From a virus (lineage: Duplodnaviria > Caudoviricetes): DNA of 43,413 nt. The first letter of the stretch is position 1, and the number at the start of each line of letters is the position of its first letter. Shown here piece after piece: positions 345 to 20,120 of the stretch. Both the position numbers and the translations under genes were made by a program. The stretch lies in the IMG/VR virus record IMGVR_UViG_3300020045_001629, positions 1 to 43,413 of that record, one strand, 5' to 3'. The notes beneath the pieces were generated by a model. It ran no database searches. It was not told where the DNA came from and saw only the letters and a list, made by a program, of their open reading frames with translations.

Positions 345-373
345 TTGACACATCAGAACAGTGCCTGTATATT
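345..373 (+). promoter_or_regulatory. Host sigma70 early promoter
   Basis: TTGACA (345-350), 17 nt spacer, TATATT (368-373). Confidence 0.75.
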
Positions 374-422
374 TCGTCTCAACGGTTCAGCAACAGCGAA
401 CCACGAAGCAAGTAACCGCTTC

Positions 423-437
423 TCTCTTTAAGAATTT
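423..437 (+). promoter_or_regulatory. boxA-like antitermination element
   Basis: TCTCTTTAAGAATTT resembles rrn boxA (TGCTCTTTAACAATTT) and lies downstream of the promoter at 345. Confidence 0.55.
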
Positions 438-541
438 AGGCGGTAGAGTAGTTCAAGGGATACAGCTTAGGGCTGGCACAACCACCGAGAACAAGATAGA
501 GACTCTTTTACCAGTGATGCAACATAACCGACACTGGCCGC

Positions 542-556
542 CGCTCTTTAATAACT
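542..556 (+). promoter_or_regulatory. boxA-like antitermination element
   Basis: CGCTCTTTAATAACT matches the boxA consensus closely. Confidence 0.6.
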
Positions 557-670
557 TGGTTCGCACAGTTCAACAGTCTGACGCAACATGTAAGGGCACC
601 CGGTAAATACCGCCTAGGTGGTTATGGCCTTAATCTTACATGCAGCTAACAACTAACGAACAGAACGCAC

Positions 671-698
671 TTGACAAGACATTCGGTGAGTGTATAAT
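671..698 (+). promoter_or_regulatory. Host sigma70 early promoter (strong)
   Basis: Perfect hexamers TTGACA (671-676) and TATAAT (693-698), 16 nt spacer. Confidence 0.85.
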
Positions 699-1067
699 GC
701 GAACCAAGGTAACAAGTAACACAGCAGATAGAAGGCGCTGATAACGCAAGCGCCAGAAGCTAGACGGATTATACGGTTCTAGTGGATACAGCCAAACGGG
801 GCTGGTTTGAAGTAGAAGGTGCTCAAGGCCGAAAGGTACAGGCGCTAACTATGAATGATTAACTGTAGGAAAGCCGCTAGCCTAGTAGCGGGTAACGAGC
901 AAGGCATCCGTGACCATGATGCCGAGAGGTAGAGTCCCTTCCCTGTCTAACTACAGGGGTCGCACTCGGTTAGTTCAAGGCTATGCTATTACGGCCAGCC
1001 TTGAAATGATCTAAGCATCTTAGGCGATAGCCTAGGGCGTTTAGATCATTTATAACCGGAGCCTGTC

Positions 1068-1268
1068 ATGGCTAAGAGGTACCACGCCATAGAAGTATTC
1101 GACCAGCTAGCGGCGCTCAACAAAGATATTGATGCTGGCGTTACAGGGGCTTTAAAGGCTAAACGAGCCTTGTCTAACTCTTGGACAGATAGGCGCTCTA
1201 ACAATGCTGGCGATTGCTTCAAAGCATCTAAAGCTAAGCCTGCACCATGTTACATAACGAAAGGATAG
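1068..1268 (+). CDS. Hypothetical early protein (66 aa)
   Basis: ORF track; GGAG RBS upstream; follows a long hairpin at 1004-1051. Confidence 0.6.
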   Translation: MAKRYHAIEVFDQLAALNKDIDAGVTGALKAKRALSNSWTDRRSNNAGDCFKASKAKPAPCYITKG

Positions 1269-1271
1269 GCT

Positions 1272-1430
1272 ATGTGGGATAAAGGATATGACGCCGGTTT
1301 CAAAGCTGGCGCTCTTTGCTGCCTTGGCGGTGGCCGCTCGGATTTGCCTGATTTCGATTCCTCTGACGAAGAAGCGGACTATGAGAATGGGTACGAGGCG
1401 GGGTATCAACACGCAACAGCAAACGACTAG
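1272..1430 (+). CDS. Small acidic early protein (52 aa) with two GYxAG motifs
   Basis: Own translation MWDKGYDAGFKAG...YENGYEAGYQHATAND; AAGGA RBS; tiles after the previous ORF; below the ORF-track cutoff. Confidence 0.65.
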   Translation: MWDKGYDAGFKAGALCCLGGGRSDLPDFDSSDEEADYENGYEAGYQHATAND

Positions 1431-1482
1431 GGTAGCAAGGTTTAAGCATTCTAGCGAGTGCTTAACTCTGGCGATCCTGCCT
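1429..1482 (+). promoter_or_regulatory. Putative RNase III processing hairpin 1
   Basis: TTAAGCATTC-TAGC-GAGTGCTTAA upper stem, internal loop and a lower stem ending in GGCGATCCTGCCT. Confidence 0.55.
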
Positions 1483-1499
1483 ACACCAAGGATTACATC

Positions 1500-1634
1500 A
1501 TGAGTATGCAAGTACTGCGCCGCCGTGCGCTGCTGATTCAGAAGACACTCGGCACTTCTATTGCCGCCGGCTTTCTCCGCAATCGTGGGCTGTCTTGCGA
1601 GGGCGCTGTAGCGCTGCTGGTGCGTCATGCCTAG
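1500..1634 (+). CDS. Small hypothetical early protein (44 aa)
   Basis: Own translation MSMQVLRRRALLIQKTLGTSIAAGFLRNRGLSCEGAVALLVRHA; AAGGATTACATC-ATG start context. Confidence 0.65.
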   Translation: MSMQVLRRRALLIQKTLGTSIAAGFLRNRGLSCEGAVALLVRHA

Positions 1635-1800
1635 GCTGCGCGATTACATCGGTGTTACATGCCGTGGCACTACTAGGACAGGTAGGCCGGAACGTTCTCG
1701 GCGGTACATCATAGCGCCGCCTGCCCTACCTGCGTACATTCAAGGCGATCTACGTAGTGAGTTGATCCTTGCTATCCGTGGGCAATGGTTCCAGCAGTAG
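1627..1800 (+). CDS. Possible small hypothetical protein (57 aa)
   Basis: Own translation MPRLRDYIG...RGQWFQQ; fills the gap between the previous ORF and the next hairpin; weak RBS. Confidence 0.35.
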   Translation: MPRLRDYIGVTCRGTTRTGRPERSRRYIIAPPALPAYIQGDLRSELILAIRGQWFQQ

Positions 1801-1807
1801 GCATCAA

Positions 1808-1857
1808 GTAGGAAACTTCTCTAGCGTCCGCTGGGCGTTAGGTAGGCAATCCTGCCT
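1808..1857 (+). promoter_or_regulatory. Putative RNase III processing hairpin 2
   Basis: GTAGGA...TCCTGC lower stem, CTAGCGTCC/GGGCGTTAG upper stem, ends in GGCAATCCTGCCT. Confidence 0.55.
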
Positions 1858-1879
1858 TTACAGCACCGAGGATTACATC

Positions 1880-2452
1880 ATGAGCAAGAAAGACACCACA
1901 GCGCCTGCTGTCAAGGCACCTGCTACCCTCAAACTTGTGGCGATCAAGCCAGCGAAGCCGCTCGTCCTACTGGTAGGCACAACAGCGATTGAGAAGGCGA
2001 TTACATCAATCAAGTCGGCAGGTACAAAGCTTGACGCGGCCATTCAAGTGGCAGGGCTGAGCATCATCATGCACGTTGATGGTTGCGGCGATAGCACTCT
2101 GGCTGATCGTCTGTTCAATGCAATGGCGAAAGGCTCCCGCCGTAATGCACTGGCTGAGTGGCTGGTTACATTCGGCAAGATGCGGGTGCTCGATAGCAAG
2201 AACAAAGACGATGCGCTGGCGATCAAGACAGGCCGTATCTTCCAGTTCGAGAAGACACGTAAGACTGACCAAGCAGGTGCCGAGGCTAAGCCGTGGTTCG
2301 AGTGCAAGAAGGAAGCGGCTGTTACAACCACGTTCGATGTACAGGCTGAGTTCGCTGCATTCATGAAGCGCGTAACTGCGGCGCAGTCGGCAGGCAAGAC
2401 GATGGAACACGCCGACATCATCGAGAAGCTGAGCAAGGCGATGGCAGCATGA
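1880..2452 (+). CDS. Early protein resembling a conserved hypothetical of phiKMV/SP6-like phages (190 aa)
   Basis: Start reassigned to ATG 1880 (GAGGATTACATC-ATG); the pattern AI.SI...G.KLD..IQ..GLS...H....GD......L..AM.KGSR.NAL..W...FG is recognised from memory. Confidence 0.85.
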   Translation: MSKKDTTAPAVKAPATLKLVAIKPAKPLVLLVGTTAIEKAITSIKSAGTKLDAAIQVAGLSIIMHVDGCGDSTLADRLFNAMAKGSRRNALAEWLVTFGKMRVLDSKNKDDALAIKTGRIFQFEKTRKTDQAGAEAKPWFECKKEAAVTTTFDVQAEFAAFMKRVTAAQSAGKTMEHADIIEKLSKAMAA

Positions 2453-2942
2453 CTTATGTGCGAACTTCACATACGGCCGACGAACTTATTATCTTTGGGG
2501 TAGGCGCGCTGAAGCTGTATTTAGCGCCCTACCCCTGACTGTAACCTGAACCACGTTGCGCCGACGCTTGAGCGTCGGCGCGTTCATCAGCAGCCTTTAC
2601 GCCTAGAGGCTGCATAACCCAGAGCGTCCCACGGTGGCAACCGCTCATGCAGGCATAAGCCGGAATGTGGAGGATGAACTATGACTTGGCGCTAAATGGG
2701 GCGGCTTGCCGCCGCTACCACGCAATAACCCCAACCATCCCGATAGGCATGTGATGTTCCCTACATACTAGGCGCTTGCTCTGGACGCAGAGAAGCTGGT
2801 CTAGGCGTACGAGGTAATTCACAGCATTGCGTATATACGCCGGGCGTTCTGCCGTACATAGCAACGGCAAAGGTGAAGTCGTACAGCCTTATATGTAGAC
2901 ACTCTGGCCGCAGAGCTTAGCTCATAACATACGGCAATCACA

Positions 2943-3006
2943 GCAGGGAATTTTAGTAGCGGCTACTGGGCGAATCCTAGTGGCTGCTACTGAGGCAATC
3001 CTGCCT
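2943..3006 (+). promoter_or_regulatory. Putative RNase III processing hairpin 3
   Basis: Long stem TTAGTAGCGGCTACTGGG/CCTAGTGGCTGCTACTGA, internal loop, lower stem GCAGG/CCTGC, ends in GGCAATCCTGCCT. Confidence 0.6.
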
Positions 3007-3021
3007 TCAAGGAGTACTACT

Positions 3022-3177
3022 GTGCTTATCAATAAGAACGGAAACGTAATGAACATCGCCTTTGATGCGAAGGCGCATACCCTCATCGACTTGAAAGAAG
3101 TGCTTGAGCCGATGTGTATCAGCAGCGGCAACTTGTTTAACATGGGCGAACGTGCCCGGATCATCGACAAGCGGTAA
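3022..3177 (+). CDS. Hypothetical early protein (51 aa)
   Basis: GTG start behind an AAGGAG RBS; part of track ORF 2980..3177; its stop overlaps the next start. Confidence 0.65.
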   Translation: MLINKNGNVMNIAFDAKAHTLIDLKEVLEPMCISSGNLFNMGERARIIDKR

Positions 3178-3362
3178 TGCTCGATGATAGCGACGACCTC
3201 TGTGGGACATGCGGAGGGTGTGGCGAAGGGATGTACGATGGCTCTAGCTGTTCTGCTTGTGGTGGTTCAGGATGCACGCCATACCATGCAGAGGGCGACG
3301 ATGATCCTCGTATAGACGCCGCTATTGATGCGGCTGAGTACTTCAGGGACTTCGATAGATGA
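3177..3362 (+). CDS. Small acidic protein with a DnaJ-type CxxCxGxG zinc finger
   Basis: CGTCGGCG and CSACGGSG repeats; translationally coupled on both sides. Confidence 0.75.
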   Translation: MLDDSDDLCGTCGGCGEGMYDGSSCSACGGSGCTPYHAEGDDDPRIDAAIDAAEYFRDFDR

Positions 3363-3928
3363 ACGCACACGAGAAGAAGGAGAAGGCACAAGCTATTGCC
3401 GAGGCGCTAAATGCCACTGCAAGCTCACCGCACGACAACGAGAACTACTATCGTATTGATATGGTGAATGGTGTGCGGTTCAGTATGGGCGTTGGTGGGT
3501 ATGCTTACAAGGGGCGCATTCACTTCAGCCCTTGTTACCCCAGTGCTGTAGCTGATGCACGGGGAAGTACTCGTGGCGTGTCTCAGCGGGACTTCGATAG
3601 GTCACTGCCGTACAACGCCAGCACATTCGATGGTATCACTGTTGCGGATACAAGGGATGCGGTGAGTATCGCTAAGGCGATTCATAGCAGGTTCCTGTCC
3701 GTGTATCAGCCGCTGTACATCCAAGCTGTTGAGTACTGCGAGAGCCAAGAGAAGTACTTCTCACAACTCAAGGAAACTACCGCACGTATCATCGAGGCGA
3801 TCAAAGACACAGGGCTTCACGCATCAAACTTCGGTAGGGACTACGCAACTCTTGAAATCTGCGCAAGTCCTGAACTCGCAACTGCTATTGCTCAAGCAGT
3901 GCGCACACATAGGGAGAACAACAAATGA
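3359..3928 (+). CDS. Hypothetical early protein (189 aa)
   Basis: ORF track; ATGA overlap with both neighbours. Confidence 0.8.
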   Translation: MNAHEKKEKAQAIAEALNATASSPHDNENYYRIDMVNGVRFSMGVGGYAYKGRIHFSPCYPSAVADARGSTRGVSQRDFDRSLPYNASTFDGITVADTRDAVSIAKAIHSRFLSVYQPLYIQAVEYCESQEKYFSQLKETTARIIEAIKDTGLHASNFGRDYATLEICASPELATAIAQAVRTHRENNK

Positions 3929-4107
3929 TTGGTGTAGGCGATAACGTGGTGTTCAACACCGCAAAGGGCAGCACTGGAATTGGCAAGGTGCTTACGTCTG
4001 ACGACTTCGGGAGCCGCCCCTTACGGGTGCAATGGCATTCAGCAATAGGTAAGCACATCGAACGCTTTAACCCGTTGGAGTGCATCAACATGGAGCAGGT
4101 ACATTGA
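3925..4107 (+). CDS. Hypothetical protein (60 aa, possibly SH3/KOW-like)
   Basis: GGAG RBS; IGVGDNV...GIGKV...VQW pattern. Confidence 0.7.
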   Translation: MIGVGDNVVFNTAKGSTGIGKVLTSDDFGSRPLRVQWHSAIGKHIERFNPLECINMEQVH

Positions 4108-4274
4108 AACTCTTTAGTGTTAATGGCGTGATCTACCAGCGCAAGAAGGCACACGGCGACTGTATTGGGTGCGCTGGTGTGGAAGACTGCCCCACATGCA
4201 GAGCACTTCCTGACTGTGGGGCCGGGCCGGTGCACATCTTCGTCAAGCGTGAAGTAACGGTGCACAATGCGTAA
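4104..4274 (+). CDS. Small Cys-rich hypothetical protein
   Basis: TTG start overlapping the previous stop; CIGC..CPTC...C. Confidence 0.6.
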   Translation: MKLFSVNGVIYQRKKAHGDCIGCAGVEDCPTCRALPDCGAGPVHIFVKREVTVHNA

Positions 4275-4425
4275 AGTATCCGCAGCTATGGTCACTCGTG
4301 GCGGAGAACGCGACGAGGATGACCGCACTTCATGGCCTGCTGAGTTTGGGCACCAGATGACTTGCAGTAAGGAGTTTCAACTAGCAGGTAACACCCTGCT
4401 ACAACAACTGATGAAAAGGCGATAA
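4267..4425 (+). CDS. Small hypothetical protein (52 aa)
   Basis: Own translation MRKVSAAMVTRGGE...LMKRR; tiles between its neighbours, and its TAA overlaps the next ATG. Confidence 0.55.
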   Translation: MRKVSAAMVTRGGERDEDDRTSWPAEFGHQMTCSKEFQLAGNTLLQQLMKRR

Positions 4426-4754
4426 TGCGTACATTTGATATGAGTGCTACCATGCAGTTCTCGGTAGTAGTTCCTGATGAGTTCGTACTGAACATGCGCC
4501 TTGCAGCACAGGGCGATGATGTGTCAGAGTTCTTGCAACACGTTCAGTCGATGTATCCGAACATCGAGGATGATGATGAGTTCATCCTTATGGTGTTGCG
4601 CAATGGTATCCGTAAGCATATCCGGCAGAGTGTTGTTACTCTGCTTGAAGAATCTAAACTTGGCGGTACGTTCTCTCCGGTGCAACTCAAAGACCGAGGA
4701 CCGGGCGTAGCCGCTGTACTTTCAAATGAAGTGCAGGAACTCATCCCTGCGTAA
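4425..4754 (+). CDS. Hypothetical protein (109 aa)
   Basis: ORF track; coupled start. Confidence 0.8.
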   Translation: MRTFDMSATMQFSVVVPDEFVLNMRLAAQGDDVSEFLQHVQSMYPNIEDDDEFILMVLRNGIRKHIRQSVVTLLEESKLGGTFSPVQLKDRGPGVAAVLSNEVQELIPA

Positions 4755-4840
4755 CTGTTTCAAGTAGTACTTTCAATCCGTAGCACCTCGCACTCTCAAT
4801 ACCGTAGAGGCGAGAACCCCAATATAAAGGTAATACCACT

Positions 4841-5266
4841 ATGAACGCCAAGAAAACTGTTGAAGCCCAAGTCGAAGTTAACGCTGCTGAAGTCGTTGTT
4901 GTTGCACCGGCTGCTCCGAAGCTCACCCGTACCGAGAAGTTGCTCAAGCGCATTGAACTCTTGAAGACCCGTATTGAGTCGGATACGAAGGAGTACCAAG
5001 AGATTGCGAACGAACTGAACAACGCTGACGCCTTGAAGAATCTGGCTATCGGCTCGAAGGTCACGATCAAGCTCGGTCGTAAGTTCGCTGACAAGGATAC
5101 TACCCGCATCGTTGAAGGTACGATCATTGGCATCCGTGCCGAAGATGAAGATGGCGGCGTGCAGTACAAGGTTACGCATGGCGTCGGCTTTGATGCTGAC
5201 ATCGCTGTTGTTGGCGCTGGTGGCATTCAGTCGGTTATTACCGACGAGGCCGCACCGGCTGCGTAA
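4841..5266 (+). CDS. Hypothetical protein (141 aa; coiled coil plus small beta domain)
   Basis: AAGGT RBS; strongly biased codon use; followed by a terminator-like hairpin. Confidence 0.85.
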   Translation: MNAKKTVEAQVEVNAAEVVVVAPAAPKLTRTEKLLKRIELLKTRIESDTKEYQEIANELNNADALKNLAIGSKVTIKLGRKFADKDTTRIVEGTIIGIRAEDEDGGVQYKVTHGVGFDADIAVVGAGGIQSVITDEAAPAA

Positions 5267-5286
5267 TCCTAGTTAAGTTCTAGGTT

Positions 5287-5321
5287 AAAGGGAGTACATG
5301 CGGTAAGGTGTGCTCCCTTTT
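5287..5321 (+). terminator. Putative intrinsic terminator ending the early region
   Basis: Stem GGGAGTACAT/GTGTGCTCCC, 8 nt loop, short TTTT tail, AAA on the 5' side. Confidence 0.6.
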
Positions 5322-5342
5322 GCGTATAACTTAGGAAAGATA

Positions 5343-5426
5343 ATGGATGTTAGCTCAGCGTGGGAACTCATCTTCATCGGGATAATAGTAGGCGCGATTA
5401 TCTCGTTCAACAGCCGACACAAATAA
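5343..5426 (+). CDS. Putative small membrane peptide (27 aa)
   Basis: MDVSSAWELIFIGIIVGAIISFNSRHK; AGGA RBS; one hydrophobic helix with a basic C-terminus. Confidence 0.5.
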   Translation: MDVSSAWELIFIGIIVGAIISFNSRHK

Positions 5427-5433
5427 GGATTAC

Positions 5434-5733
5434 ATGCACAATGACGAGGAAATTCTTACCCTAATTCAAGCCCTTGATGTACTCCCTATGGGCGACGATA
5501 AGTTACGTCGCTTGGCTAAGGCCAAAGAAATACCTTGCAGGTTCATAGGGGGTAGGTATTACTTCATCAAGAAAGACCTTATCCAGTTCGTGCGGGAGGG
5601 TTACACAATGGAGGCTAAGCCATGCCCTATCGAAGACCCGATTCTAAATCGTGGTGGATCATCGTATCAAAGGTACGCCAATCATCTGGGACTGAAAACT
5701 ACGAAGACGCCAAAGCTCTTGAAGCAAGGCTAA
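5434..5733 (+). CDS. xis: Excisionase-like DNA-binding protein (HTH_17/MerR-like fold)
   Basis: ILTLIQALDVL.....LRRLAKAKEIPCRFIGGRYYF...DL pattern; overlaps the 5' end of the integrase. Confidence 0.75.
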   Translation: MHNDEEILTLIQALDVLPMGDDKLRRLAKAKEIPCRFIGGRYYFIKKDLIQFVREGYTMEAKPCPIEDPILNRGGSSYQRYANHLGLKTTKTPKLLKQG

Positions 5734-6749
5734 ATCATAGGGAGTGGCTTGATACTAAGATGGACATCAAGCCCCCTAAGACATGGGTAGAGGCAGCATG
5801 TAAGTACATGGATGAGCGAGCACACAAGGCAAGTTTCGAGACAATCAAACAGCGCATTATGTGGTGGCATCCCTATCTAGGCGAGATTCATGACATCACC
5901 AAAATTAGCCGTGATCTTATTGATAGCACGCTGCGCTTGCACCGACCTATCACCACCTTGGCAAGCTCAGCAAACACCACGGCGAACAAGTACGCCATCG
6001 TTGTTGCTGCGGTCCTTAATGCAGCGTGTAGGGAATGGGCGTGGATCGAGTCCTCCCCTAAGATGCGGCGTTACCCTGAACCTGAGCACAAGAGAGCGTA
6101 CCTCCGAGTACACGAATGGCTTGTACTCGCAAAGGAACTCCCGCCGCACCTACTCGCTCCCGCAACCTTTGCTCTTAGCACTGGCCTCCGCGATGCAAAG
6201 GTCTTCGGCCTTGAGTGGGGTCAGATAGACCCGCACCTGCGCACGCTGACTACTGTAGGCAATGCCCTAAAGCGGGGTGTAGTTATCCCCTTGAACAACA
6301 CAGCTATGGGCGTACTCAAGGCGATCCGTGCGGACTTCACCGAGGCGCAGAAGAAGCGACCGCCCAAGAGAGTGTTCCTGTACGACGGTAAGCCTCTCTT
6401 GGACTACGGTGATGCGTGGTATAGGGCGCTTGAGCGTTCGGGCCTTGGTGAGCGTTCCCGGTGGCTTGGTGAGGATCAGAAAGAGCATACGAAATGGGAG
6501 GGCTTCACTTGGCACGGTTTGAGGCACACGTTCGCATCGTGGCTTGGACAGAACGGCGCTAGTGAAATGGTGATCGATCAGTTGTGTGGCTGGGCCGAAA
6601 AGGATATGCGTAGTACATACACCCACCTAGACACGGAACACCTCCGACCGCATAGCGCAGTGATAGACAGAGTGCTAGAACGTGGCACCGTGCATCAGAT
6701 CGATACATCGGATTCACGTTCTATTCACGTTGCAGATGGTTGGGAGTAA
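5622..6749 (+). CDS. int: Tyrosine recombinase / phage integrase
   Basis: Catalytic motifs TGLR, HGLRHTFASW (HxxR), LCGW and a nucleophile Tyr in STYTH; N-terminal arm-binding-like region; GGAGG RBS. Confidence 0.95.
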   Translation: MPYRRPDSKSWWIIVSKVRQSSGTENYEDAKALEARLNHREWLDTKMDIKPPKTWVEAACKYMDERAHKASFETIKQRIMWWHPYLGEIHDITKISRDLIDSTLRLHRPITTLASSANTTANKYAIVVAAVLNAACREWAWIESSPKMRRYPEPEHKRAYLRVHEWLVLAKELPPHLLAPATFALSTGLRDAKVFGLEWGQIDPHLRTLTTVGNALKRGVVIPLNNTAMGVLKAIRADFTEAQKKRPPKRVFLYDGKPLLDYGDAWYRALERSGLGERSRWLGEDQKEHTKWEGFTWHGLRHTFASWLGQNGASEMVIDQLCGWAEKDMRSTYTHLDTEHLRPHSAVIDRVLERGTVHQIDTSDSRSIHVADGWE

Positions 6750-6780
6750 AGCGGATTGGCTGGAAGCCTTGGTACTACTG

Positions 6781-6826
6781 GGTGCGCCCGACGAGACTCG
6801 AACTCATAACCGCCGGCTTAGAAGGC
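6781..6826 (-). other. attP core: 3' half of a tRNA-Arg(TCT)
   Basis: Reverse complement GCCTTCTAAGCCGGCGGTTATGAGTTCGAGTCTCGTCGGGCGCACC reads as anticodon loop CTTCTAA, 3' anticodon strand GCCGG, T arm ATGAG-TTCGAGT-CTCGT, acceptor strand CGGGCGC, then ACC. No 5' half is present. It lies 31 nt after the int stop. Confidence 0.9.
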
Positions 6827-6949
6827 TTAGGAGTCTATACCTAAGTGCTTGATTCTATTGCATGTACCATCCGTGAAATGTCTCGGAAAGTGCAGCGAAA
6901 CGCATAGTACCGTACAAAATCTTCACGGTCAAACTTTAGGGAGAACACG

Positions 6950-7732
6950 ATGCTGCCAGAAGAAGACTGGCTCAGAAAGGCGAAGGCTCTCCCGATAGGG
7001 CGACAGGACAGACTGTACCACGGCAGGGAGAAGCGCCCTAATCTCGTAGTCGGGAATCTCCCTGATAGGTGGTGGGCGTACTGCCAGCATTGCAAGCAAG
7101 GGGCTGTGCTGCACAAGGAGCATGTTCGCCTTGGGGTAGCCTCACCCGAGGCAAAGAAATCGAACCTGAGCCTTCCCTGCGACCTCGTTCCATTCAGCAT
7201 GTTGGATGAGCCTACCCTGCATGTTCTCTCAGTATTCCTAGCCAGCAAGGGCATGGATGCAGTAATGCTCCCTCCGCTCTGGTACTCCTGTACTCGCAAA
7301 CGAATTCTTATTCAGGTGAACGAGGGCTGGCTAGGTCGTGATGTAACAGGTAACGCACTAGAGAAGTGGCTTACCTATACCCGAGACACGAAGTACCTGT
7401 ACTGGAATCAGTACGCTGCTAGGACTGTTGTAGTAGAGGATGTGTTCTCGTACTTCAAAGTTATCTGGGCGAAGCCTAACTACAACGTGATGTGTGCTCT
7501 AGGTACAGGCATCAAAGACAGCATTGTAATGAAGTTGCTGAACCACAACCTAGTGTACTTCATGTTCGATGGTGATGACGCTGGACACCGAGGCGCTGAT
7601 ACAGGCGTAACACGTTTGAGGGGGCTAGGGACTCCCGCAGTCAATGTATGTGCACCACTAGGGCATGACCCGAAAGACCTTTCAGCAGCAGCAATCCGAA
7701 GTCTAATTCTACAAGGAACACCTAATGAATAG
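6950..7732 (+). CDS. DNA primase (zinc-binding N-terminus plus TOPRIM)
   Basis: WAYCQHC; VVVEDVFS; FDGDDAG; DPKD. Confidence 0.92.
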   Translation: MLPEEDWLRKAKALPIGRQDRLYHGREKRPNLVVGNLPDRWWAYCQHCKQGAVLHKEHVRLGVASPEAKKSNLSLPCDLVPFSMLDEPTLHVLSVFLASKGMDAVMLPPLWYSCTRKRILIQVNEGWLGRDVTGNALEKWLTYTRDTKYLYWNQYAARTVVVEDVFSYFKVIWAKPNYNVMCALGTGIKDSIVMKLLNHNLVYFMFDGDDAGHRGADTGVTRLRGLGTPAVNVCAPLGHDPKDLSAAAIRSLILQGTPNE

Positions 7733-8117
7733 TAATGCTGAGCAGTACGACCAAGACTGTTACCCCATTGGCTACATGATTAACGGCGGCAGCACTGTTA
7801 AGGGACCAACGTACGACATCGTTGATATTCGTACTCTTGATGTGCTGTGTATTACCGAGTTGGCTTCACGAGAGATTGCACCTATCGCCAAGGAATTGAA
7901 CCAGCGCATGCGGGATGGCACTTACACGCTGGGACAGCCATTGCAGATCAGCATGGAGGATGCCGGAGTGCGGTATGAGTTCATGCCAGAACCTGAGAAG
8001 GCAGCAGAAGACCCAGTAGTAGAAGCCACCACTGTTGTAGTCGAGGATGTAGCTGCTGTCCTTAAGTATCCAGCATTCGTTGCACCGACCATCCCAAGCC
8101 TCCCCACTCTGCACTAA
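7725..8117 (+). CDS. Hypothetical protein between primase and helicase (130 aa)
   Basis: AAGGA RBS; coupled to both neighbours. Confidence 0.8.
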   Translation: MNSNAEQYDQDCYPIGYMINGGSTVKGPTYDIVDIRTLDVLCITELASREIAPIAKELNQRMRDGTYTLGQPLQISMEDAGVRYEFMPEPEKAAEDPVVEATTVVVEDVAAVLKYPAFVAPTIPSLPTLH

Positions 8118-9412: not shown

Positions 9413-9609
9413 AACCCTATGGATGTAGAGACAGAGAACTTCGCAAGGGGTACTTCGTACAGGTTCGCGTGTACGACCAGCTAGAACGCTACCGGCTGGC
9501 CGATAGGTTCATACCATTCACCATGAGTACCGAGTGCCACTACAGCAAGACAACGCCTGACCCGCGTTGTGCTGGGTGCAAACATAACCAAGGAGAACGT
9601 ATTGCCTGA
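9409..9609 (+). CDS. Small Cys-containing hypothetical protein (66 aa)
   Basis: TTG start overlapping the helicase stop; YGC...CHY...DPRCAGC; part of track ORF 9334..9609. Confidence 0.6.
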   Translation: MKPYGCRDRELRKGYFVQVRVYDQLERYRLADRFIPFTMSTECHYSKTTPDPRCAGCKHNQGERIA

Positions 9610-10447: not shown

Positions 10448-10450
10448 CGC

Positions 10451-12805: not shown

Positions 12806-12865
12806 GAAGTTGTACCGCCTACACGACAAGCTCGAATTGTTAGCAATCAAACTGGAGAAATGAGA

Positions 12866-13837
12866 ATGAGCAAACTTACTGAAATGCAAGCAGCAATCGC
12901 ACTGGCCGCTTCGACTGGTGCAAACATGACCGAGGCACAGAAGGGCGGCGGCGGTGGGCGATTGCTCCCCGCTGGCTATGCCTTCGGTCGGCTTGTCTCG
13001 TATGTTGAGCAGGGGAACCAGCCGCAGTCCTTCAACGGTGTAGCTAAAGACCCGAAACCGCAAGCGCAGATTGGCTTCGCTCTAACCGGGGAAGGGTATA
13101 CTAATGAGGATGGCTCCCCGTACCTCATCTACCCGTATGCGTTCAGTCTTGACCGGAACGAGAAGGCGAAGGCATACCTTCTGTTCAAGGCACTGAATTG
13201 GAAAGGCACGGCTACTCACTTCGCACAGTTGCTCGGTGAGGGCTTCCTTGTGAACATCGTGCATGAGCCTAAGAGCAAGGCAGACAAGGCGCTGGTATCC
13301 CGCATCAACCTGAAGGGCTTCCTGCCCCCGCTTGATCCGGTTACGAAGATGCCGTATGCCATTGCCGAGGCACGCGACGAAGACCTGCAACTGTTCCTGT
13401 GGGACTATCCTACCCTTGAGGCTTGGAACAGCATGTTCATTGAGGGCGCATGGGATGATGGCCGCTCGAAGAACTTCATGCAGGAAACCCTTGCTGGTGC
13501 TACGAACTTCTCAGGCTCCCCGCTTGAGGCGCTTCTCCGTACCGCAGGCGCAGCAATCCCCGTGGCTGCACCGAAAGCCGCTGTCGTGGCACCTGCCCTT
13601 CCTGCAACCCCTGCTGCTCCTGTTGCCCCGGCGGTGGCTGCTGCGGTCCCTTTGGTTCAAGCGGTGGCCCCGGCACCTGTGCCTGTGGCTCCCCCTGTCA
13701 TTCTGGCCCCGGCTTCAGTTGGAGTACCTGCATTGCCTGTGATGCCAGCGGTGACATCCCGTATTAGCGTGGCACCGCCTGCCATGCCGATGATGCCCAG
13801 TCTGCCCACGTTCCAGCAACCGGCGATGGTGCAGTAA
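12866..13837 (+). CDS. Conserved phiKMV-like replication-region protein (possibly ssDNA-binding) with a Pro/Ala-rich C-terminal tail
   Basis: Syntenic between polymerase and exonuclease; GGGGRLLPAGYAFGRLVSYVE.G motif; last ~90 aa are low-complexity P/A/V. Confidence 0.8.
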   Translation: MSKLTEMQAAIALAASTGANMTEAQKGGGGGRLLPAGYAFGRLVSYVEQGNQPQSFNGVAKDPKPQAQIGFALTGEGYTNEDGSPYLIYPYAFSLDRNEKAKAYLLFKALNWKGTATHFAQLLGEGFLVNIVHEPKSKADKALVSRINLKGFLPPLDPVTKMPYAIAEARDEDLQLFLWDYPTLEAWNSMFIEGAWDDGRSKNFMQETLAGATNFSGSPLEALLRTAGAAIPVAAPKAAVVAPALPATPAAPVAPAVAAAVPLVQAVAPAPVPVAPPVILAPASVGVPALPVMPAVTSRISVAPPAMPMMPSLPTFQQPAMVQ

Positions 13838-14736
13838 TGATTGTCAAGGGAGTTGATACCTCTGTACTCCCGGCTCAATTCGCTGGGTGTGTGGCTGGTA
13901 GAACTCTCATCCTTGATGGCGATGGTCCCGCCTATCGTGTAGCTGCTACTGTGAAACGACTGGATACTGCCATTAGGCGGTTCCAGCAGGCGATGCTTAC
14001 AGAGTTGTTCCTAACGCAGAGCAGCACAGTACGCATTCACCTAACTGCATCAGGTTCGGATAAGGCAGGCAGGTTCCGTATCAAGGCAGTCAAGCCGTAC
14101 CAAGGGAACAGAACGAACAAGCAGAAGCCTAGCTTGCTCGAACCCTTGCGCCAAGCAATGACCAACCGTGAGAACTGGCTCCCTGAGTTTGACTACGTAC
14201 TGATGCACCATGTACTAGAAGCCGATGATGGGATGATCCAAGATGCTTATCAACTCAAAGAGGATGGTTTGATATGGTCCGACGACAAAGACCTACGCAT
14301 GACGCCGTACCCGTACTGGTGCAAAGCAAGCGGAATGATACTGCCCTCTGCGACGATGGGCAATCTAGCACTTATGCACACCGAGAGCGGTACTCCGAAG
14401 TTGATAGGCCAAGGCCCATTGTTCTTCTGGGCACAGATGATGATGGGCGACACAGCGGACAACGTGCAAGGGCTGCTAGAGCACAACGGGAAGAAATGCG
14501 GGGCTTGCGGTACGTACGAAACGCTCAAGGATATTGGTTCGATCAACGAGGCCGCAAATACGGTCCTGAACTCATACCGAGCAATATCCCAAAACCCTCT
14601 GTCCGAGGGCTGGCTTTTGTGGTTGCTCAGATGGAACGGTGACACGTTCTGGAATTACCTACAGGAGATTGAACTATCAAACGAGAATCGCGCATTTGTA
14701 AATGAATGCGCCACAAGGGAATGGTTTACTCAGTAG
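13837..14736 (+). CDS. 5'-3' exonuclease (T7 gp6-like)
   Basis: ILDGDG, PYQGNR, EADD, SDDKDL, GDTADN motifs. Confidence 0.93.
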   Translation: MIVKGVDTSVLPAQFAGCVAGRTLILDGDGPAYRVAATVKRLDTAIRRFQQAMLTELFLTQSSTVRIHLTASGSDKAGRFRIKAVKPYQGNRTNKQKPSLLEPLRQAMTNRENWLPEFDYVLMHHVLEADDGMIQDAYQLKEDGLIWSDDKDLRMTPYPYWCKASGMILPSATMGNLALMHTESGTPKLIGQGPLFFWAQMMMGDTADNVQGLLEHNGKKCGACGTYETLKDIGSINEAANTVLNSYRAISQNPLSEGWLLWLLRWNGDTFWNYLQEIELSNENRAFVNECATREWFTQ

Positions 14737-15154
14737 TTGTATAGATCACGGCTGCAAGGGAATGGGCCTTGGGTATGCAACTTCTTGGGTAACTCGGAAT
14801 GGCATTAGAAGCACAACAACGAAGCACCGCAAGATTCACTATGAACGTACTGGTGAATGGCCCGAAGTAGTTCGGCACACTTGCGACAATCCCCGCTGCA
14901 TCAATCCAGAGCATCTACTAGGCGGCACCTACGTAGATAACATGCAGGACATGCGGGATAGGCACCGCGAAGGCGACACTCGGAACTTCGGAGAGACTAA
15001 CGGCAGGGCAATCCTGACCGATAGTGAAGTTCAAGAGATACGCCGCATCTACATTAAATCAAGCAGAAGCACAGGACTCCCAGCCCTATCTAGGCGCTAC
15101 GGTGTAGGTACGTCACAACTATGGAGAATCATACAAGGTGAGCAGCGAAACTAA
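14702..15154 (+). CDS. Free-standing HNH homing endonuclease
   Basis: HR...VVRHTCDNPRCINPEHL..GT..DN core; C-terminal GETNGRAILT..EV.EIR HTH-like domain. Confidence 0.9.
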   Translation: MNAPQGNGLLSSCIDHGCKGMGLGYATSWVTRNGIRSTTTKHRKIHYERTGEWPEVVRHTCDNPRCINPEHLLGGTYVDNMQDMRDRHREGDTRNFGETNGRAILTDSEVQEIRRIYIKSSRSTGLPALSRRYGVGTSQLWRIIQGEQRN

Positions 15155-15575
15155 ACCATTACGTATTGTACCTCGAAGCCAGATGCGGAGTTGGAGCCTT
15201 CGCCAACTTCAAGCACAAGGAGGTATTTGCCCAGTGTGTAAGGCGCATGTAGATATGCGGGTGAAGGGGGAAGGCGTTCAAGACCATAACCACACTACCG
15301 GAGAGATTCGTGGTGTGCTGCATCGCTCATGCAATGCGGCATTGGGGAAGGTAGATAGTGCCGCAGGAAGATGGGGCGCTAAGAGCATGGAGTACCCCAA
15401 GATTATCGCGTGGTTAGAGGGAATGCTTGAGTACTACAAGCAGCCGGGAACAGGTTTCCAGTACGCTATGCACAAGACAGCGGACGAAAAGAAGGACGCA
15501 GTTAATGCTAAGGCAAGGACACGCCGAGCAGAGATTAAAGCCAAGCTAGTACTTCGACAAAGGACAGTACATTGA
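15138..15575 (+). CDS. Recombination endonuclease VII-like Holliday junction resolvase
   Basis: QGGICPVC...DHNHTTGEIRGVLHRSCN. Confidence 0.92.
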   Translation: MSSETKPLRIVPRSQMRSWSLRQLQAQGGICPVCKAHVDMRVKGEGVQDHNHTTGEIRGVLHRSCNAALGKVDSAAGRWGAKSMEYPKIIAWLEGMLEYYKQPGTGFQYAMHKTADEKKDAVNAKARTRRAEIKAKLVLRQRTVH

Positions 15576-15784
15576 CCCAAAAGTTAGATAGCACATGTAT
15601 TGAGCAGTTAGAGTGTGTATGGCATGATCGGGGATTTAGTACCTCGGTGTGCTACCAGTTTGATGGTGCAACCCCTCATATCCTGCTCACCCAAGAAGGC
15701 AATAACACGGGTGACGATGAGGCAGTAGTAGTTATGTCCAAGGTTGATTTCCTTCGCCTTGCCGATAAGATTCGAGGCCATTAA
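15572..15784 (+). CDS. Hypothetical protein (70 aa)
   Basis: TTG start overlapping the upstream stop; AAGGA RBS. Confidence 0.65.
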   Translation: MTQKLDSTCIEQLECVWHDRGFSTSVCYQFDGATPHILLTQEGNNTGDDEAVVVMSKVDFLRLADKIRGH

Positions 15785-15924
15785 TGGCGCGAGTTGAGTT
15801 CGTAGTTACCCTCATTGATATTGAGGAAGACGCCTGCCATGAAGTACTGCGGCAAGGCGTAGAGAAATCCCTAGCGATGCACCTCCCATTCATTACAGCG
15901 GAGGTAGTATGCGCGGATCAATGA
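15784..15924 (+). CDS. Small hypothetical protein (46 aa)
   Basis: Own translation MARVEFVVTLIDIEED...VVCADQ; TAATG and ATGA couplings on either side. Confidence 0.55.
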   Translation: MARVEFVVTLIDIEEDACHEVLRQGVEKSLAMHLPFITAEVVCADQ

Positions 15925-16874
15925 TGCGGCTGTACACGAAAGAACAGCACATCGAAATCCTTGAGCAAAACCCCACGAACAAAGCAGCAGCCGATGCGTA
16001 CTTCGGAGCATCGGGTAGTACAGTAACTCCCCAGCTAGTCGCGTACTGGCGCAAGATATTCATCGAGAACGCAGGCAAGCTCAGCACTACCGATAATATC
16101 TTGAAGCAGACACGGGTGCTTATCAAGCCCCAACCTGATGATGATATTGGCGATACCTCATTCATTCCTGAATGCGCCTCAAGCATCCTCGTTATCCCAG
16201 ACATGCACGCACCGTATCACCATGCGGATACGCTCCCGTTCCTGCACGCAGTCAAGAAGGCGTTCAAGCCTGACCTCGTGGTATCCCTCGGTGATGAACT
16301 CGACTACCACGGGCTATCGTTCCATGACTCAGACCCCAATCTCGATAGTGCTGGTGCTGAGCTTGAGAAGGGTAAGAAGTTCTTGAAGAGGCTGCACGCG
16401 GAGTACTCAAACCTTCTAGTCTGCCACAGCAACCACGGAAGCATGGTGTATCGCCGTGCGAAGGCGCACGGTATCCCGGTGCAAATGATTCGTAAGTACC
16501 GCGAGATTGTTCTTCCTGGTACAGACAGTTCAGGCTGGTCATGGGCGTTCTCTTGGCGTGTTAATACCCCGCTTGGTGAAGTGCTGTTCAAACATCAAAC
16601 TACTGGAATCCTTGCGGATGCTGCACACAATTCTTGCAATCTGGTGGTGGGGCACAATCACGGTAATTTCTCTGTGGAGTACTGCGCTAGTTCTAGCCAT
16701 TTGTATTATGGGGCGTACGCTGGATGCTTGATCGATAAGGATGCACTGGCCTTTGCATACGGAAAGCACTCTGTAAAGAAACCTATCATTGGTTGCATGG
16801 TCATCCTAAATGGCCGACCTATGGCAATCCCCATGATTCTTGATACCGAGGGACGATGGATCAAACAACTGTGA
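15921..16874 (+). CDS. Calcineurin-like metallophosphoesterase with N-terminal HTH-like region
   Basis: PDMH, GDELD, SNH, KH and GHNH metal-binding motifs (track start 15909). Confidence 0.9.
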   Translation: MMRLYTKEQHIEILEQNPTNKAAADAYFGASGSTVTPQLVAYWRKIFIENAGKLSTTDNILKQTRVLIKPQPDDDIGDTSFIPECASSILVIPDMHAPYHHADTLPFLHAVKKAFKPDLVVSLGDELDYHGLSFHDSDPNLDSAGAELEKGKKFLKRLHAEYSNLLVCHSNHGSMVYRRAKAHGIPVQMIRKYREIVLPGTDSSGWSWAFSWRVNTPLGEVLFKHQTTGILADAAHNSCNLVVGHNHGNFSVEYCASSSHLYYGAYAGCLIDKDALAFAYGKHSVKKPIIGCMVILNGRPMAIPMILDTEGRWIKQL

Positions 16875-17338
16875 AGCGGTACTACTCAGCAATGGATAAA
16901 GACCGAGCCTGCAATGTGTTCTACGCGGTGCAGCACCCAACACACGGAGAGTGGGAGTTATTCAACCCAACCCAAGGGTTCGTGTACATACAGGAGCGGG
17001 ACCATGTGGTGCTCCCTGCTGTAGTACATACGGTGCAGCGGGGTTTCAGCATGCACGAGTGTTCCCGCGATGGTGGCCCTCTTACCCCACACCCGTATAG
17101 CCAACCAGACCCGAAGGTTAATATCTGGGATACACAGGTGGGAGGTACGCATTATACCAAGATGCGGATTCAACCTTTTCAGTTCAGCATGGCTAATAAG
17201 CTGGACCCGATGCAACACACCATTATTAAGTACGTGGCGCGCTTCCGTGATAAAGGGGGCATCCCTGATCTTGAGAAGGCGAAGCAAACTATTGACCTGT
17301 TAATTGATTGGGAAAAGACTAATGCAAACGCAAGTTAA
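16856..17338 (+). CDS. DUF3310 (T7 gp1.7/SaV-like) domain protein
   Basis: C-terminal QVGGTHY...IQP...IIKYVAR..DKGG..DLEKA; alternative GTG start at 16871. Confidence 0.85.
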   Translation: MDQTTVKRYYSAMDKDRACNVFYAVQHPTHGEWELFNPTQGFVYIQERDHVVLPAVVHTVQRGFSMHECSRDGGPLTPHPYSQPDPKVNIWDTQVGGTHYTKMRIQPFQFSMANKLDPMQHTIIKYVARFRDKGGIPDLEKAKQTIDLLIDWEKTNANAS

Positions 17339-17477
17339 GCAGTCCGTTATGGCTGCTATGGAAACAGGGAATCAGAGTGTAGCCCGAATGTTGTTACGCG
17401 AGTTCCAAGCTGTCGATACAGAACAAGGGCAATCTCTGCAAATGGACGTACTCCGAACGTACGGCATCATGTTGTGA
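17322..17477 (+). CDS. Small hypothetical protein (51 aa)
   Basis: Own translation MQTQVKQSVMAAMETGN...VLRTYGIML; tiles between its neighbours. Confidence 0.65.
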   Translation: MQTQVKQSVMAAMETGNQSVARMLLREFQAVDTEQGQSLQMDVLRTYGIML

Positions 17478-17665
17478 CAGCAAAGAAATACTTACCCCTA
17501 AACAGAATACTAGAAGAAATACAAAGAGCACAGCTTCAGTGTAAAGGTGCCTTCCCGGTTGTGATTAAGTTCACGACCCCGGAAGGCATTACTTTGAGCG
17601 CTAATGTGCTGACCGCCAGATTCGATGTGAACAGCGGTAACGTAGTCCTAACGGCTAAAGGATAG
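17474..17665 (+). CDS. Hypothetical protein (63 aa)
   Basis: GTGA overlap; ends at the RNAP RBS. Confidence 0.6.
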   Translation: MTAKKYLPLNRILEEIQRAQLQCKGAFPVVIKFTTPEGITLSANVLTARFDVNSGNVVLTAKG

Positions 17666-17666
17666 C

Positions 17667-20120
17667 ATGACCGGGGATCGGGATAAGCAGCACTTGTACG
17701 AAGAATCAAATGATGTGGTAGCAGCAGCAAAGCGATTAGATGAGTTGCGAAAAGGTGCAGCAGAAGGCAACCTAGACCTACCCAAAGCAAGCCGACTGAT
17801 AGCGAACACTTATGTAATGGTGCAAGACGCACTAGAAGCAGAAATGGCTATTAAGACCAGAGGCACAGGTGGCAAACTAAAGAACTGGCTTAGAGCGATC
17901 CCCACTACCCTAGCCGCAGTAATAGCCCTGCGGGAATGTATTGCAATCCTATCCCGTTCTGGTGATGGGGTTAATATCCAAACATTAGCCAGCACCATCG
18001 GCAGGCTATGGGAACTCGAAGTAAAGATCAAAGAGGCAGAGAGCGTTAATCCGATGTACATGAAGAAGGTACATGAGCAAATCAAGGATCGCTGCACTAC
18101 AGATCAGACACACATACGCCGAGTGTACAACACCGCGTATGAGAACATTATGAAGGGGGAACTAGATTCCTCGTTGAATCAAGCAGAGTACGTGCAACTC
18201 GGAAAGTACGGAGTTCAAGCATGTATGGATGCAGGGCTTGTAATTAGCCACCGAACTGTTAATAAACTTAGCACCTCAGTTATGTTCAACCTAGCCCCAG
18301 AGATTCAAGAGTTCCTTAACGACTACACCGATGCAGACGTTAGAGCAATCATGGATAAAGAGGCAGGTGCCATGCTATGCGCCCCCGATGATTGGAGCAC
18401 CCTAGCAGATGGTGGGTACTTGACTGCACGCCGTAAGCTGCACAGCCCCCTGATGAGTATGGCGCGTATCCGCAATAGCGAACGGCAGCATATCCGGGAT
18501 GAGTTCACAGCAGAGAAAATGCCTGCTGTGTTTAATGCGGGGAATTACTTACAGTCGCAGAAGTTCATGCTGCACATGCCCACGGTTAATACCATCCGGC
18601 GTATCTGGGACATCGGCGGGGGTGTGCTTGGCGTACCTACCAAGAAAGCCCCCACAAAGCCTGTCTGCCCGTTGCCCCCTGAATGGGACAAGAGCACAGG
18701 CACACCGGAGGAATTAGTTCTATTCAGTCGGTGGAAGCGCAAGGCTGTGGAGTTCTATACCGAGTTAGGCACGTGGAAGGGGCATGTACGGGAGGTTGCG
18801 GGGCATATCAAAGTAGGCGCGGTACATGCAGAGCACCCTATCTGGTTCCCCGTGTATATGGATACACGGGGCCGCTGGTACTACCGAGGCACCCCGAATC
18901 CCCAAGGCTCTGACCTAGCTAAGTCTGCCCTGCACTTCGCAGACAAGAAGCCCCTTGGTGTGCGTGGGCTGTTCTGGTTGAAGGTACACATTGCGAACTC
19001 TTTCGGGTTTGATAAAGAACGATTCATTGACCGAGCAGCATGGACTGATAAGCACTGGGCAGATATTGAAAGGGCACTAGATGATCCTGAAAACCACTTG
19101 GATGTGTGGGGTACAGATGCTCCGTGGTGTATGTACAGTGCAGCGTGGGAGCTTAGAGAAGCCTACCGAAGTGGAAACCCACAGGGATACTGTACTGGCA
19201 TTGTTGTACACATGGATGCTACTTGCTCTGGGCTTCAACATTTTAGCGCTCTGTTACGCGATCCTATTGGTGGGCAGTACGTAAACCTAAGTGATGACAT
19301 GCAGTGTGGTCCTAAGCAAGACATCTATAGCCGGGTAAGCACAATGGCACTGCAAGCCATGCAGCGGGATACCGAGAGCGCAGAGGTTGCAGTGCGCAAT
19401 ATGGCGATGTGGTGGCTTAGTGTAGGCATTCCTCGGGGCATGGCTAAGAAGCCAGTTATGACCTACGTGTATGGGGCCACCCTACGAGGAACGTGTGACT
19501 TCGTTCGAGTGTATGTTGAAGATGAACTGGGGTTAAGTTGGCCGGAAGAACAGGCGTCATACAAGTACAGTCAGTACTGCGCCATGAAACTGTTTGATGG
19601 TATTGCTAGAACTGTTCCCGCTGCTGAGTACGCAATGAACTGGTTACGCAGTATTGCAAAGGCACAACCCAGAGGCGTTCGTATGGAGTGGCGCACGCCA
19701 ACAGGGTTTCTCGTGCAGCATGACTACCAAGACTACGATGAGAAGCGAGTAGATATTCGCTCCTGTGGTATCTCCAAGGCAATTGTTAAAACTAGGAACG
19801 ACAGCACCAAGCCTATCCGTATGCAGAATGCTATAGCGCCTAACTTCGTGCACTCCCTAGATGCGGCCCATATCACCATGACTGCATTGAAGATGAAAGA
19901 AGTAAGACTGAGCATGGTAGGTATTCATGACTCCTTTGGTACGCATCCTTGTGATGTGGATACGCTGCATGTACTAACCCGCGCTGCGTTCATTGAGTTG
20001 TACAAGGACCGTAACATCCTTGGGGAATTCCTGTGGGACGTACACGGCGCTGGGGAAGTGCCTATGCGTGGAGAGCTAGATGTGGAATGCGTTAGAGACT
20101 CGGAGTTCTTCTTCAGCTAG
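17667..20120 (+). CDS. Single-subunit DNA-directed RNA polymerase (T7-type)
   Basis: DTRGRWY, PQGSD, motif A HMDATCSGLQH, motif B RGMAKKPVMTYVYG, APNFVHSLDA, motif C IHDSFGT, C-terminal FFFS. Confidence 0.98.
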   Translation: MTGDRDKQHLYEESNDVVAAAKRLDELRKGAAEGNLDLPKASRLIANTYVMVQDALEAEMAIKTRGTGGKLKNWLRAIPTTLAAVIALRECIAILSRSGDGVNIQTLASTIGRLWELEVKIKEAESVNPMYMKKVHEQIKDRCTTDQTHIRRVYNTAYENIMKGELDSSLNQAEYVQLGKYGVQACMDAGLVISHRTVNKLSTSVMFNLAPEIQEFLNDYTDADVRAIMDKEAGAMLCAPDDWSTLADGGYLTARRKLHSPLMSMARIRNSERQHIRDEFTAEKMPAVFNAGNYLQSQKFMLHMPTVNTIRRIWDIGGGVLGVPTKKAPTKPVCPLPPEWDKSTGTPEELVLFSRWKRKAVEFYTELGTWKGHVREVAGHIKVGAVHAEHPIWFPVYMDTRGRWYYRGTPNPQGSDLAKSALHFADKKPLGVRGLFWLKVHIANSFGFDKERFIDRAAWTDKHWADIERALDDPENHLDVWGTDAPWCMYSAAWELREAYRSGNPQGYCTGIVVHMDATCSGLQHFSALLRDPIGGQYVNLSDDMQCGPKQDIYSRVSTMALQAMQRDTESAEVAVRNMAMWWLSVGIPRGMAKKPVMTYVYGATLRGTCDFVRVYVEDELGLSWPEEQASYKYSQYCAMKLFDGIARTVPAAEYAMNWLRSIAKAQPRGVRMEWRTPTGFLVQHDYQDYDEKRVDIRSCGISKAIVKTRNDSTKPIRMQNAIAPNFVHSLDAAHITMTALKMKEVRLSMVGIHDSFGTHPCDVDTLHVLTRAAFIELYKDRNILGEFLWDVHGAGEVPMRGELDVECVRDSEFFFS

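Follow-up and report, generated by a model that had tools for sequence, protein, structure and literature searches.

A phiKMV-type podophage with an integration cassette at tRNA-Arg: predicted disconnection of the replication and RNA polymerase genes from the early promoters

The stretch of DNA analysed here (the window) is the whole of the virus record IMGVR_UViG_3300020045_001629, 43,413 bases classed as linear, with the gene order of a phiKMV-type podophage as judged from PHROGs and Pfam assignments. After the last conserved early gene and before the primase gene it carries an excisionase gene (xis), a tyrosine integrase gene (int) and a phage attachment site (attP), a cassette that is intact in its reading frames, catalytic residues and attachment-site (att) anatomy. 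Recombination at attP is predicted to leave all genes from primase to the single-subunit RNA polymerase (RNAP) without a promoter, and as a prediction this promoter disconnection of the replication genes and RNAP is well supported. We give roughly even chances to the view that the phage does integrate at tRNA-Arg, that the primase-RNAP genes are thereby left with no predicted promoter, and that the integrated state is likely short-lived. An original prediction, made from the sequence of this record, had proposed that integration itself is the genetic switch of lysogeny; its observation is confirmed below, and its interpretation is partly supported.

The integration cassette and the anatomy of attP

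The genes of the window run from small early genes through primase, helicase, ligase, DNA polymerase, nucleases and RNAP (17667-20120) to portal, capsid, tail, terminase and lysis genes. Two traits of phiKMV-like Autographiviridae are present: the single-subunit RNAP closes the replication module ahead of the structural genes, and, judging by sequence motifs, host promoters occupy the left end and phage promoters the region past RNAP. The nearest isolates by RNAP (53-56% identity) are Sphaerotilus phage SnaP-R1, Macromonas BK-30P, Pseudomonas Bertil and Ralstonia RSB3, and the search for near-identical phage records returned only short exonuclease matches, in four records. The features on which the analysis of the cassette relies are the following.

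1068-5266, + strand: early genes, including a gp5.5-like H-NS inhibitor (4425-4754, weak match) and conserved phrog_1448 (1880-2452)
5275-5335, + strand: long imperfect hairpin (z = -6.1)
5434-5733, + strand: xis, an HTH_17 excisionase, whose start uses the phage's own early-gene ribosome-binding motif
5622-6749, + strand: tyrosine integrase, with R190, K217, H298, R301, W324 and Y333 present
6713-6729, + strand: two arm-type TTCACG repeats in the int 3' end, from motif count
6781-6826, - strand: 3' half of tRNA-Arg(TCT), the att homology, with the predicted crossover in the anticodon loop (6818-6824)
6827-6935, no strand: primase-side att arm, with TTCACG repeats at 6872 and 6922
6842-6854, - strand: consensus match to an integration host factor (IHF) site, the only one in the record
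6904-6932, - strand: leftward sigma70-like site (9/12), predicted to drive host tRNA-His after integration
6950-20120, + strand: coupled operon of primase, helicase, ligase, DNA polymerase, phrog_862, exonuclease, HNH, endonuclease VII, phosphoesterase, kinase-like gene and RNAP

The cassette shows the traits of a tRNA-targeting tyrosine-integrase module, namely the catalytic R-K-H-R-H/W-Y residues together with a directionality factor and, in attP, a tRNA 3' half, an IHF site and arm sites. Located between int and primase, attP does separate the early promoters from the operon, as originally proposed, and it is present in the free-phage configuration. The motif TTCACG, which was picked after inspection, occurs four times around the core compared with 0.075 expected. 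The arm at 6827-6935 aligns at about 60% identity with the attP arm of a lambdoid phage (L159) and with an integrated junction in a bacterial locus (L380), in both cases far above 500 shuffles, and thus nearly all the DNA left with primase after integration (125 bp) is att arm.

A Propionivibrio locus whose adjoining integrase is 60% identical matches the region of the tRNA half at 87.5% identity over 72 nt, and in loci L079-L083 and L239 homologous integrases (57-60% identity) face a whole tRNA-Arg(TCT) gene in head-on orientation. No exact match to the phage tRNA half was found among 301 genomes of that family; the closest halves, in seven of them, have three mismatches in 44 nt, two of which together replace a G-C pair of the T stem by A-T. 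Neither a whole tRNA (ARAGORN) nor an RNA family (Rfam) was found in the window. The phage half ends in ACCCA instead of ACCA (6777-6783, - strand), as it does in L159, and therefore the restored tRNA would need repair of its CCA end. No terminator was detected 3' of the tRNA half (z = -0.04), and most of seven donor loci folded likewise had no significant hairpin, so that the window is nothing unusual in this respect. An antisense site at 5670-5641 was considered as an anti-xis promoter and rejected, its -10 box not being kept in seven homologues.

In the window, as in L159 and L380, 88-89 nt separate the core from the leftward sigma70-like site of the arm, which was absent from the original prediction. 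The host tRNA-Arg belongs to a Pro-Arg-His cluster, and in L380 the site faces tRNA-His. The site likely re-supplies tRNA-His once the phage has integrated, but its conservation could instead reflect sites for Xis or Int. It was not seen at that position in seven attP-like loci of distinct lineages. The site points away from primase and therefore does not refute promoter disconnection. An outward promoter-like site is common to the att arms of elements that split the Pro-Arg-His tRNA cluster and may represent a general rescue of tRNA-His.

Upstream of xis, the hairpin at 5275-5335 is likewise an addition to the original prediction. Similar stems are found 3' of the same gene in integrase-less relatives; it is likely an RNase III-type processing site and conceivably a partial terminator. 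Its role as a lysogeny-specific terminator was rejected because relatives without integrase have it too. A 27-aa hydrophobic open reading frame (ORF; 5343-5426) has the hairpin on one side and xis on the other, and a family search with it gave nothing above threshold.

Promoters and coupling of the primase-RNAP operon

The following promoter and promoter-like features were identified on the two sides of attP.

231-259, + strand: weak sigma70-like site with a perfect -35 and a poor -10 box, upstream of attP, ranked third by the clade-trained matrix (9.0 bits)
345-373, + strand: predicted early sigma70 promoter, 11/12
423-551, + strand: two boxA-like motifs (423 and 543); one copy occurs upstream of primase in 4 of 18 relatives
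671-698, + strand: predicted early sigma70 promoter, 12/12
17292-17320, + strand: best internal sigma70-like site of the operon, 6.4 bits, at chance level
20347-20384, + strand: predicted phage RNAP promoters, one partial (20347-20349, 21 bp upstream of 20368) and one full copy, positioned as P007-P008 of LUZ19
35158-35174, + strand: predicted phage RNAP promoter ahead of the tail fibre gene, a repeated motif

A scan of the whole record for sigma70 matches of at least 10/12 on the + strand returned only the sites at 345 and 671, in agreement with the earlier statement that these are the consensus promoters. Matches of 9/12 at 2466 and 3137 both lie upstream of attP, and none of at least 9/12 was found on this strand from 3164 to 20000. 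A matrix trained on 44 left-end sigma70 sites of relatives plus the two strong sites of the window gave a best rightward score of -0.9 bits in the primase-side att arm, and its best score across the whole operon, 6.4 bits at 17292, falls below the null maxima (7.5-12.9 per 10.8 kb). The latter site was rejected as a promoter for RNAP, given its chance-level score and, by eye, the lack of a similar site in four relatives. The same layout is seen in the clade: 19 integrase-less relatives hold 44 sites of at least 10/12 in 41,980 bp of left-end sequence versus none in 171,352 bp from primase onward, a sample in which many loci end before RNAP. The absence of a predicted promoter from both att arm and operon therefore implies that integration would deprive the replication genes and RNAP of any predicted promoter.

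The near-continuous coupling claimed for the genes from primase (6950) to RNAP (20120) was also observed: 15 of 16 junctions overlap or are at most 3 nt apart, the remaining gap being 54 nt (12806-12859). The predicted phage promoter has exact copies at 20368 and 35158, and no convincing copy lies ahead of RNAP. The claim that none occurs before 20368 thus stands as regards RNAP, but it overlooked the partial copy at 20347-20349. In LUZ19, five strong promoters are described at the left end, and phage promoters are placed just past RNAP and in the structural region, with one antisense (10.1101/2023.10.13.562163); the motif positions in the window (20347-20384 and 35158) agree with these. Early and middle genes of phiKMV-like phages are described as transcribed by host RNAP (PMC7552054). 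The order deduced for the prophage, att-primase...RNAP-late genes-early promoters-early genes-xis-int-att, follows from the sequence. So does the conclusion that neither primase-RNAP nor the late genes would keep any of their predicted promoters, which is backed by the clade layout and the LUZ19 start-site map.

Several minor features accompany the left-end promoters. Two short blocks are repeated after both strong promoters (396-417 and 699-720). Antisense sigma70-like sites of 10/12 occur at 768-795 and 42768-42797 (both - strand), and one near the left end is present in 6 of 19 relatives too. The motifs at 423 and 543 resemble boxA, an element of antitermination.

Search for a repressor

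The statement that the genome lacks a CI-like repressor was upheld. Among 59 predicted genes (PHROGs), 49 ORFs (Pfam), 25 small genes (NCBIfam) and 126 of 237 alternative frames (Pfam), the sole helix-turn-helix match was Xis; no window gene matched a MarR-type (phrog_9665) or CI-type regulator, and frames spanning attP had no Pfam match. The same kind of scan detected the control regulators of P-SSP7, Pasto, HTVC019P and L159. The last of these, a lambdoid phage with the same cassette, does carry a CI-type repressor. No strict LexA-like box was found near the promoters, and LexA control was rejected on that ground; a 189-aa early protein had no DNA-binding look-alike in the ESM Atlas. Most early ORFs match no family in PHROGs, Pfam or NCBIfam.

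Predicted course of integration

We suggest the following sequence of events. Host RNAP would make one long transcript from 345 and 671 through xis-int and attP to the phage RNAP gene. In a fraction of infections Int would insert the circular genome at the tRNA-Arg anticodon loop, and no replication proteins or RNAP would be made from the inserted copy. The arm promoter may re-supply the downstream tRNA-His, while the early promoters would go on producing early proteins, Xis and Int. Excision would then restore the lytic circuit, provided that Int is not damped by tRNA transcription running head-on into its gene. With no repressor found, and with the 11/12 and 12/12 promoters remaining in front of the early genes and xis-int, excision is the expected default. 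It is at this point that the proposed lysogeny switch lacks support. The head-on transcription of int from the host tRNA does follow from the sequence, but it is a trait of the integrase family and not of this phage.

Several observations weigh against real but short-lived integration. No repeat is shared by the ends of the record, i.e. no direct terminal repeat is seen in this metagenomic contig classed as linear, and because of this the circularisation of the genome is an assumption. Both integration and instability are predictions for this phage. The conserved outward promoter and the paired change in the T stem suggest selection for survival of the host after integration, which fits longer residence. 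With no terminator 3' of the tRNA half, antisense damping of int is possible. Finally, prophages related to Burkholderia phage Bp-AMP1 have been reported in bacterial genomes, although no repressor family was matched among 14 AMP1 ORFs, which implies that phages of this layout do persist stably by an unexplained route.

Among the other explanations the foremost, though still improbable, is that a hidden trans-acting factor (an unassigned early protein, a P2 Cox-like Xis or a host protein) silences the early promoters, so that disconnection serves as a second lock in a stable lysogen. The large share of early ORFs without a family leaves room for such a protein, there are AMP1-like prophages whose attP is terminal in the genome, so that no disconnection occurs, the Xis of L159 weakly matches a Cox-like family (E 0.003), and a 14-bp palindrome (306-319; two such in the record) lies just upstream of the 345 promoter. 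The palindrome, however, is present at that promoter only, the scans returned no helix-turn-helix, MarR-type or CI-type match other than Xis, and the LexA-box search and the structural comparison of the 189-aa protein were negative as well.

That the cassette is a passenger, formerly active in its donor and now rarely or never used by this phage, appears unlikely. Genome entry of T7 depends on transcription, and RNAP may thus precede circle formation. The lack of an exact host tRNA half also speaks for this explanation, and loss of integrase is described as leaving unchanged the lytic growth of S-TIP37 (PMC8776855) and the cold-sensitive phenotype of AMP1 (PMC8917201, PMC4231975). Against it stand the intact frames and catalytic residues, the conservation of the IHF box and of the arm promoter, a codon use that has adapted to the phage, and four arm repeats that differ in concert from donor-type repeats.

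Stable lysogeny without a repressor is doubtful. This reading, which completes the original prediction, supposes that integration is the switch and that head-on transcription from the host's Pro-Arg-His tRNA operon holds Int below the level needed to excise; the phage would then be a member of a lytic lineage turned temperate, in which a drop in host stable-RNA synthesis frees Int and reconnects the lytic circuit, a scenario we regard as similarly doubtful. Consistent with this, primase-RNAP would retain no predicted promoter after integration, and none was predicted in modelled host flanks (five attB or junction loci); no terminator shields int against tRNA read-through, and the tRNA-His rescue promoter is kept. 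On the other hand, the early genes and xis would remain under the 12/12 promoter, the head-on tRNA is generic to the integrase family, such a lysogen would have no superinfection immunity, and neither the relatives nor the genomes searched (see below) yielded the cassette or a prophage of this kind.

That the record joins a lytic phage to a piece of a mobile element through misassembly, as the single metagenomic contig and the failure to find a relative with the same junctions might suggest, is highly improbable. Both junctions fall at functional edges (the phage ribosome-binding motif at the xis start, and the arm end, from which primase starts after about 15 nt), attP has the form expected in the free phage, and GC content and codon use match the phage.

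Origin and distribution of the cassette

In the integrase tree, where the four outgroups form long branches, the window integrase groups with elements of Rhodocyclales (clade support 92/100), far from the integrases of AMP1, Pasto, P-SSP7 and HTVC019P. Its neighbours include L159 and an element (L082) that is similar to integrative and conjugative elements by reading of its ORFs. The cassette was likely captured from a Rhodocyclales mobile element. The codon-use distance of int to the phage is 0.082, within the range of the phage's own genes (0.048-0.132), versus 0.13 for donor integrases; together with the phage-type ribosome-binding motif of xis, this points to long residence and argues against a chimera.

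The survey of attP position in relatives, which the original prediction had called for, did not support it. The cassette is absent (tblastn and profile hidden Markov models) from all 77 primase loci examined, comprising 4 isolate genomes and 73 IMG/VR contigs with some duplicates, whose primases are at most 48% identical to that of the window; closer kin lie outside this set. At least 3 kb of upstream sequence was available in 67 of the 83 loci with a primase match, and no integrase family matched any of 82 long upstream frames (82 of 89; seven were dropped, L064 having no upstream DNA). The closest protein homologues are integrase P0090 (78%) and primases P0002-P0004 (62-75%). In IMG/VR, the integrase alone and the exact tRNA half had no match, and the attP-like pattern recovered nine loci, none with phiKMV-like genes.

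Prophages of this kind were not found in the genomes searched, which were samples and partly lacked a positive control. Without such a control, a primase scan of GTDB gave 41 pattern matches, none confirmed, RNAP was detected in 0 of 5 integrase-bearing genomes, and the primase profile in 0 of 400 genomes, with one genome left unscored. Two scans for the RNAP family PF00940, over 401 genomes each, gave a match in one and in two genomes. Two of these three matches were weak, at 26-33% identity, one of them lying in a locus not of phage type; the third was a T7-type contig.

Some loci met in these searches deserve mention. A 1038-aa ORF in a bacterial chromosome (L362:16649-19762, G385:C1) matches T7-like RNAP (PF00940, E 3e-68); there is no other homologue of the window phage in 80 kb, and neighbouring ORFs resemble type III CRISPR (Cmr) genes by eye. 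A similar 1027-aa frame is present in L366 (G480:C51). The contig covered by L367-L369 (G465:C270, 40,410 bp), from a genome assigned at the level of Burkholderiales, is a T7-type phage in which an integrase-like gene precedes RNAP by about 2 kb.

Comparison with known integrating podophages

The location of attP between integrase and RNAP is already known from pelagiphages and T7-like cyanophages, and integration of the cyanophages is transient. In HTVC019P-type pelagiphages, P-SSP7 and S-TIP37, as in the window, the core of attP derives from a tRNA, and the site lies past the early genes, with integrase on one side and RNAP on the other; integration of these phages has been demonstrated. This position is described for 12 pelagiphages (10.1101/410191); P-SSP7 and S-TIP37 are described as integrating at attP past int, with S-TIP37 doing so in 0.3-1% of infected cells and giving no stable lysogens (PMC8776855). 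These phages differ in having the T7 layout with RNAP first, whereas in the window 11 kb of replication genes precede RNAP. In addition, int is preceded in P-SSP7 and HTVC019P by a phrog_9665 regulator, where the window has xis, and their integrases are only distantly related to the window integrase in the tree; P-SSP7 retains a sigma70 match of 10/12 in the stretch from int to RNAP, and the window has none.

Rhizobium phage Pasto (MT708545) and Pseudomonas phage LUZ100 also have an integrase module between the early region and RNAP, in Pasto with a - strand tRNA between int and RNAP. In these phages a MarR-type regulator is proposed to act as repressor of a promoter ahead of RNAP. LUZ100 is described with a MarR-int module and a phage promoter at that place, and it yielded no stable lysogens (PMC10134795). 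The window has neither such a regulator nor such a promoter: its RNAP lies 11 kb past attP with no promoter above chance, unlike the MarR-type temperate Autographiviridae (Pasto, LUZ100, HTVC019P), in which integrase adjoins an early RNAP.

Bp-AMP1 (Ampunavirus) shares with the window the phiKMV-type gene order, a tyrosine integrase and a tRNA fragment. It is described with a terminal integrase and 10 related prophages, whose maintenance is called unexplained (PMC8917201, PMC4231975). Its integrase, however, is found together with the tRNA fragment at the end of the genome, where it is encoded on the - strand and has a promoter-like site of its own; it is 24% identical to that of the window, which lacks this terminal arrangement. 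Integration of Bp-AMP1 would not part the early promoters from RNAP, whereas that of the window phage would. The lytic phiKMV-like phages (LUZ19 and the nearest isolates) have the same gene order, with host promoters at the left end only and phage promoters after RNAP, but no integrase or att was found before primase in the loci examined.

Cis-acting effects of integration are familiar from other phages. In the split-operon control of P2 int and the sib retroregulation of lambda, integration separates a gene from a cis-acting element, but only int is regulated in this way and the lytic genes are held by a repressor. In mycobacteriophage BPs, recombination at attP alters the regulatory state as well, attP being described as lying inside the repressor gene so that integration activates the repressor (PMC3694055); in the window attP lies between int and primase, and no repressor was found.

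New here are the phiKMV layout, the absence of a MarR-type regulator and the absence of any predicted promoter left for RNAP. The case is one of independent acquisition, by a phiKMV-type phage, of an integration module whose position is predicted to shut off replication and RNAP in cis, with no regulator recognised. In a literature search of titles and abstracts (few subscription journals, no supplements), promoter disconnection was not found proposed as a silencing mechanism for this phage family. The silencing of T7-like and phiKMV-like prophages is stated as open in the AMP1 paper, and cyanophages integrate without lysogeny; the present genome provides a clean test case, having no recognisable regulator and an attP so placed that integration would part the replication genes and RNAP from all predicted promoters. 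The genome further suggests that a single step may suffice for a functional integration module to enter a phage whose group is regarded as strictly lytic, a point of relevance to the screening of phages for therapy or biocontrol.

Other features of the genome

Within the replication operon, the HNH endonuclease gene (14702-15154) is inserted with the exonuclease on one side and endonuclease VII on the other. The major capsid gene is flanked on both sides by terminator-like hairpins with long T runs (23817-23842 and 24880-24922), and no copy of the phage promoter lies between the first hairpin and the capsid start. Finally, the second gene past RNAP encodes a GNAT acetyltransferase (20665-21075, Pfam), which occupies the position of the Rac protein in phiKMV-like phages.

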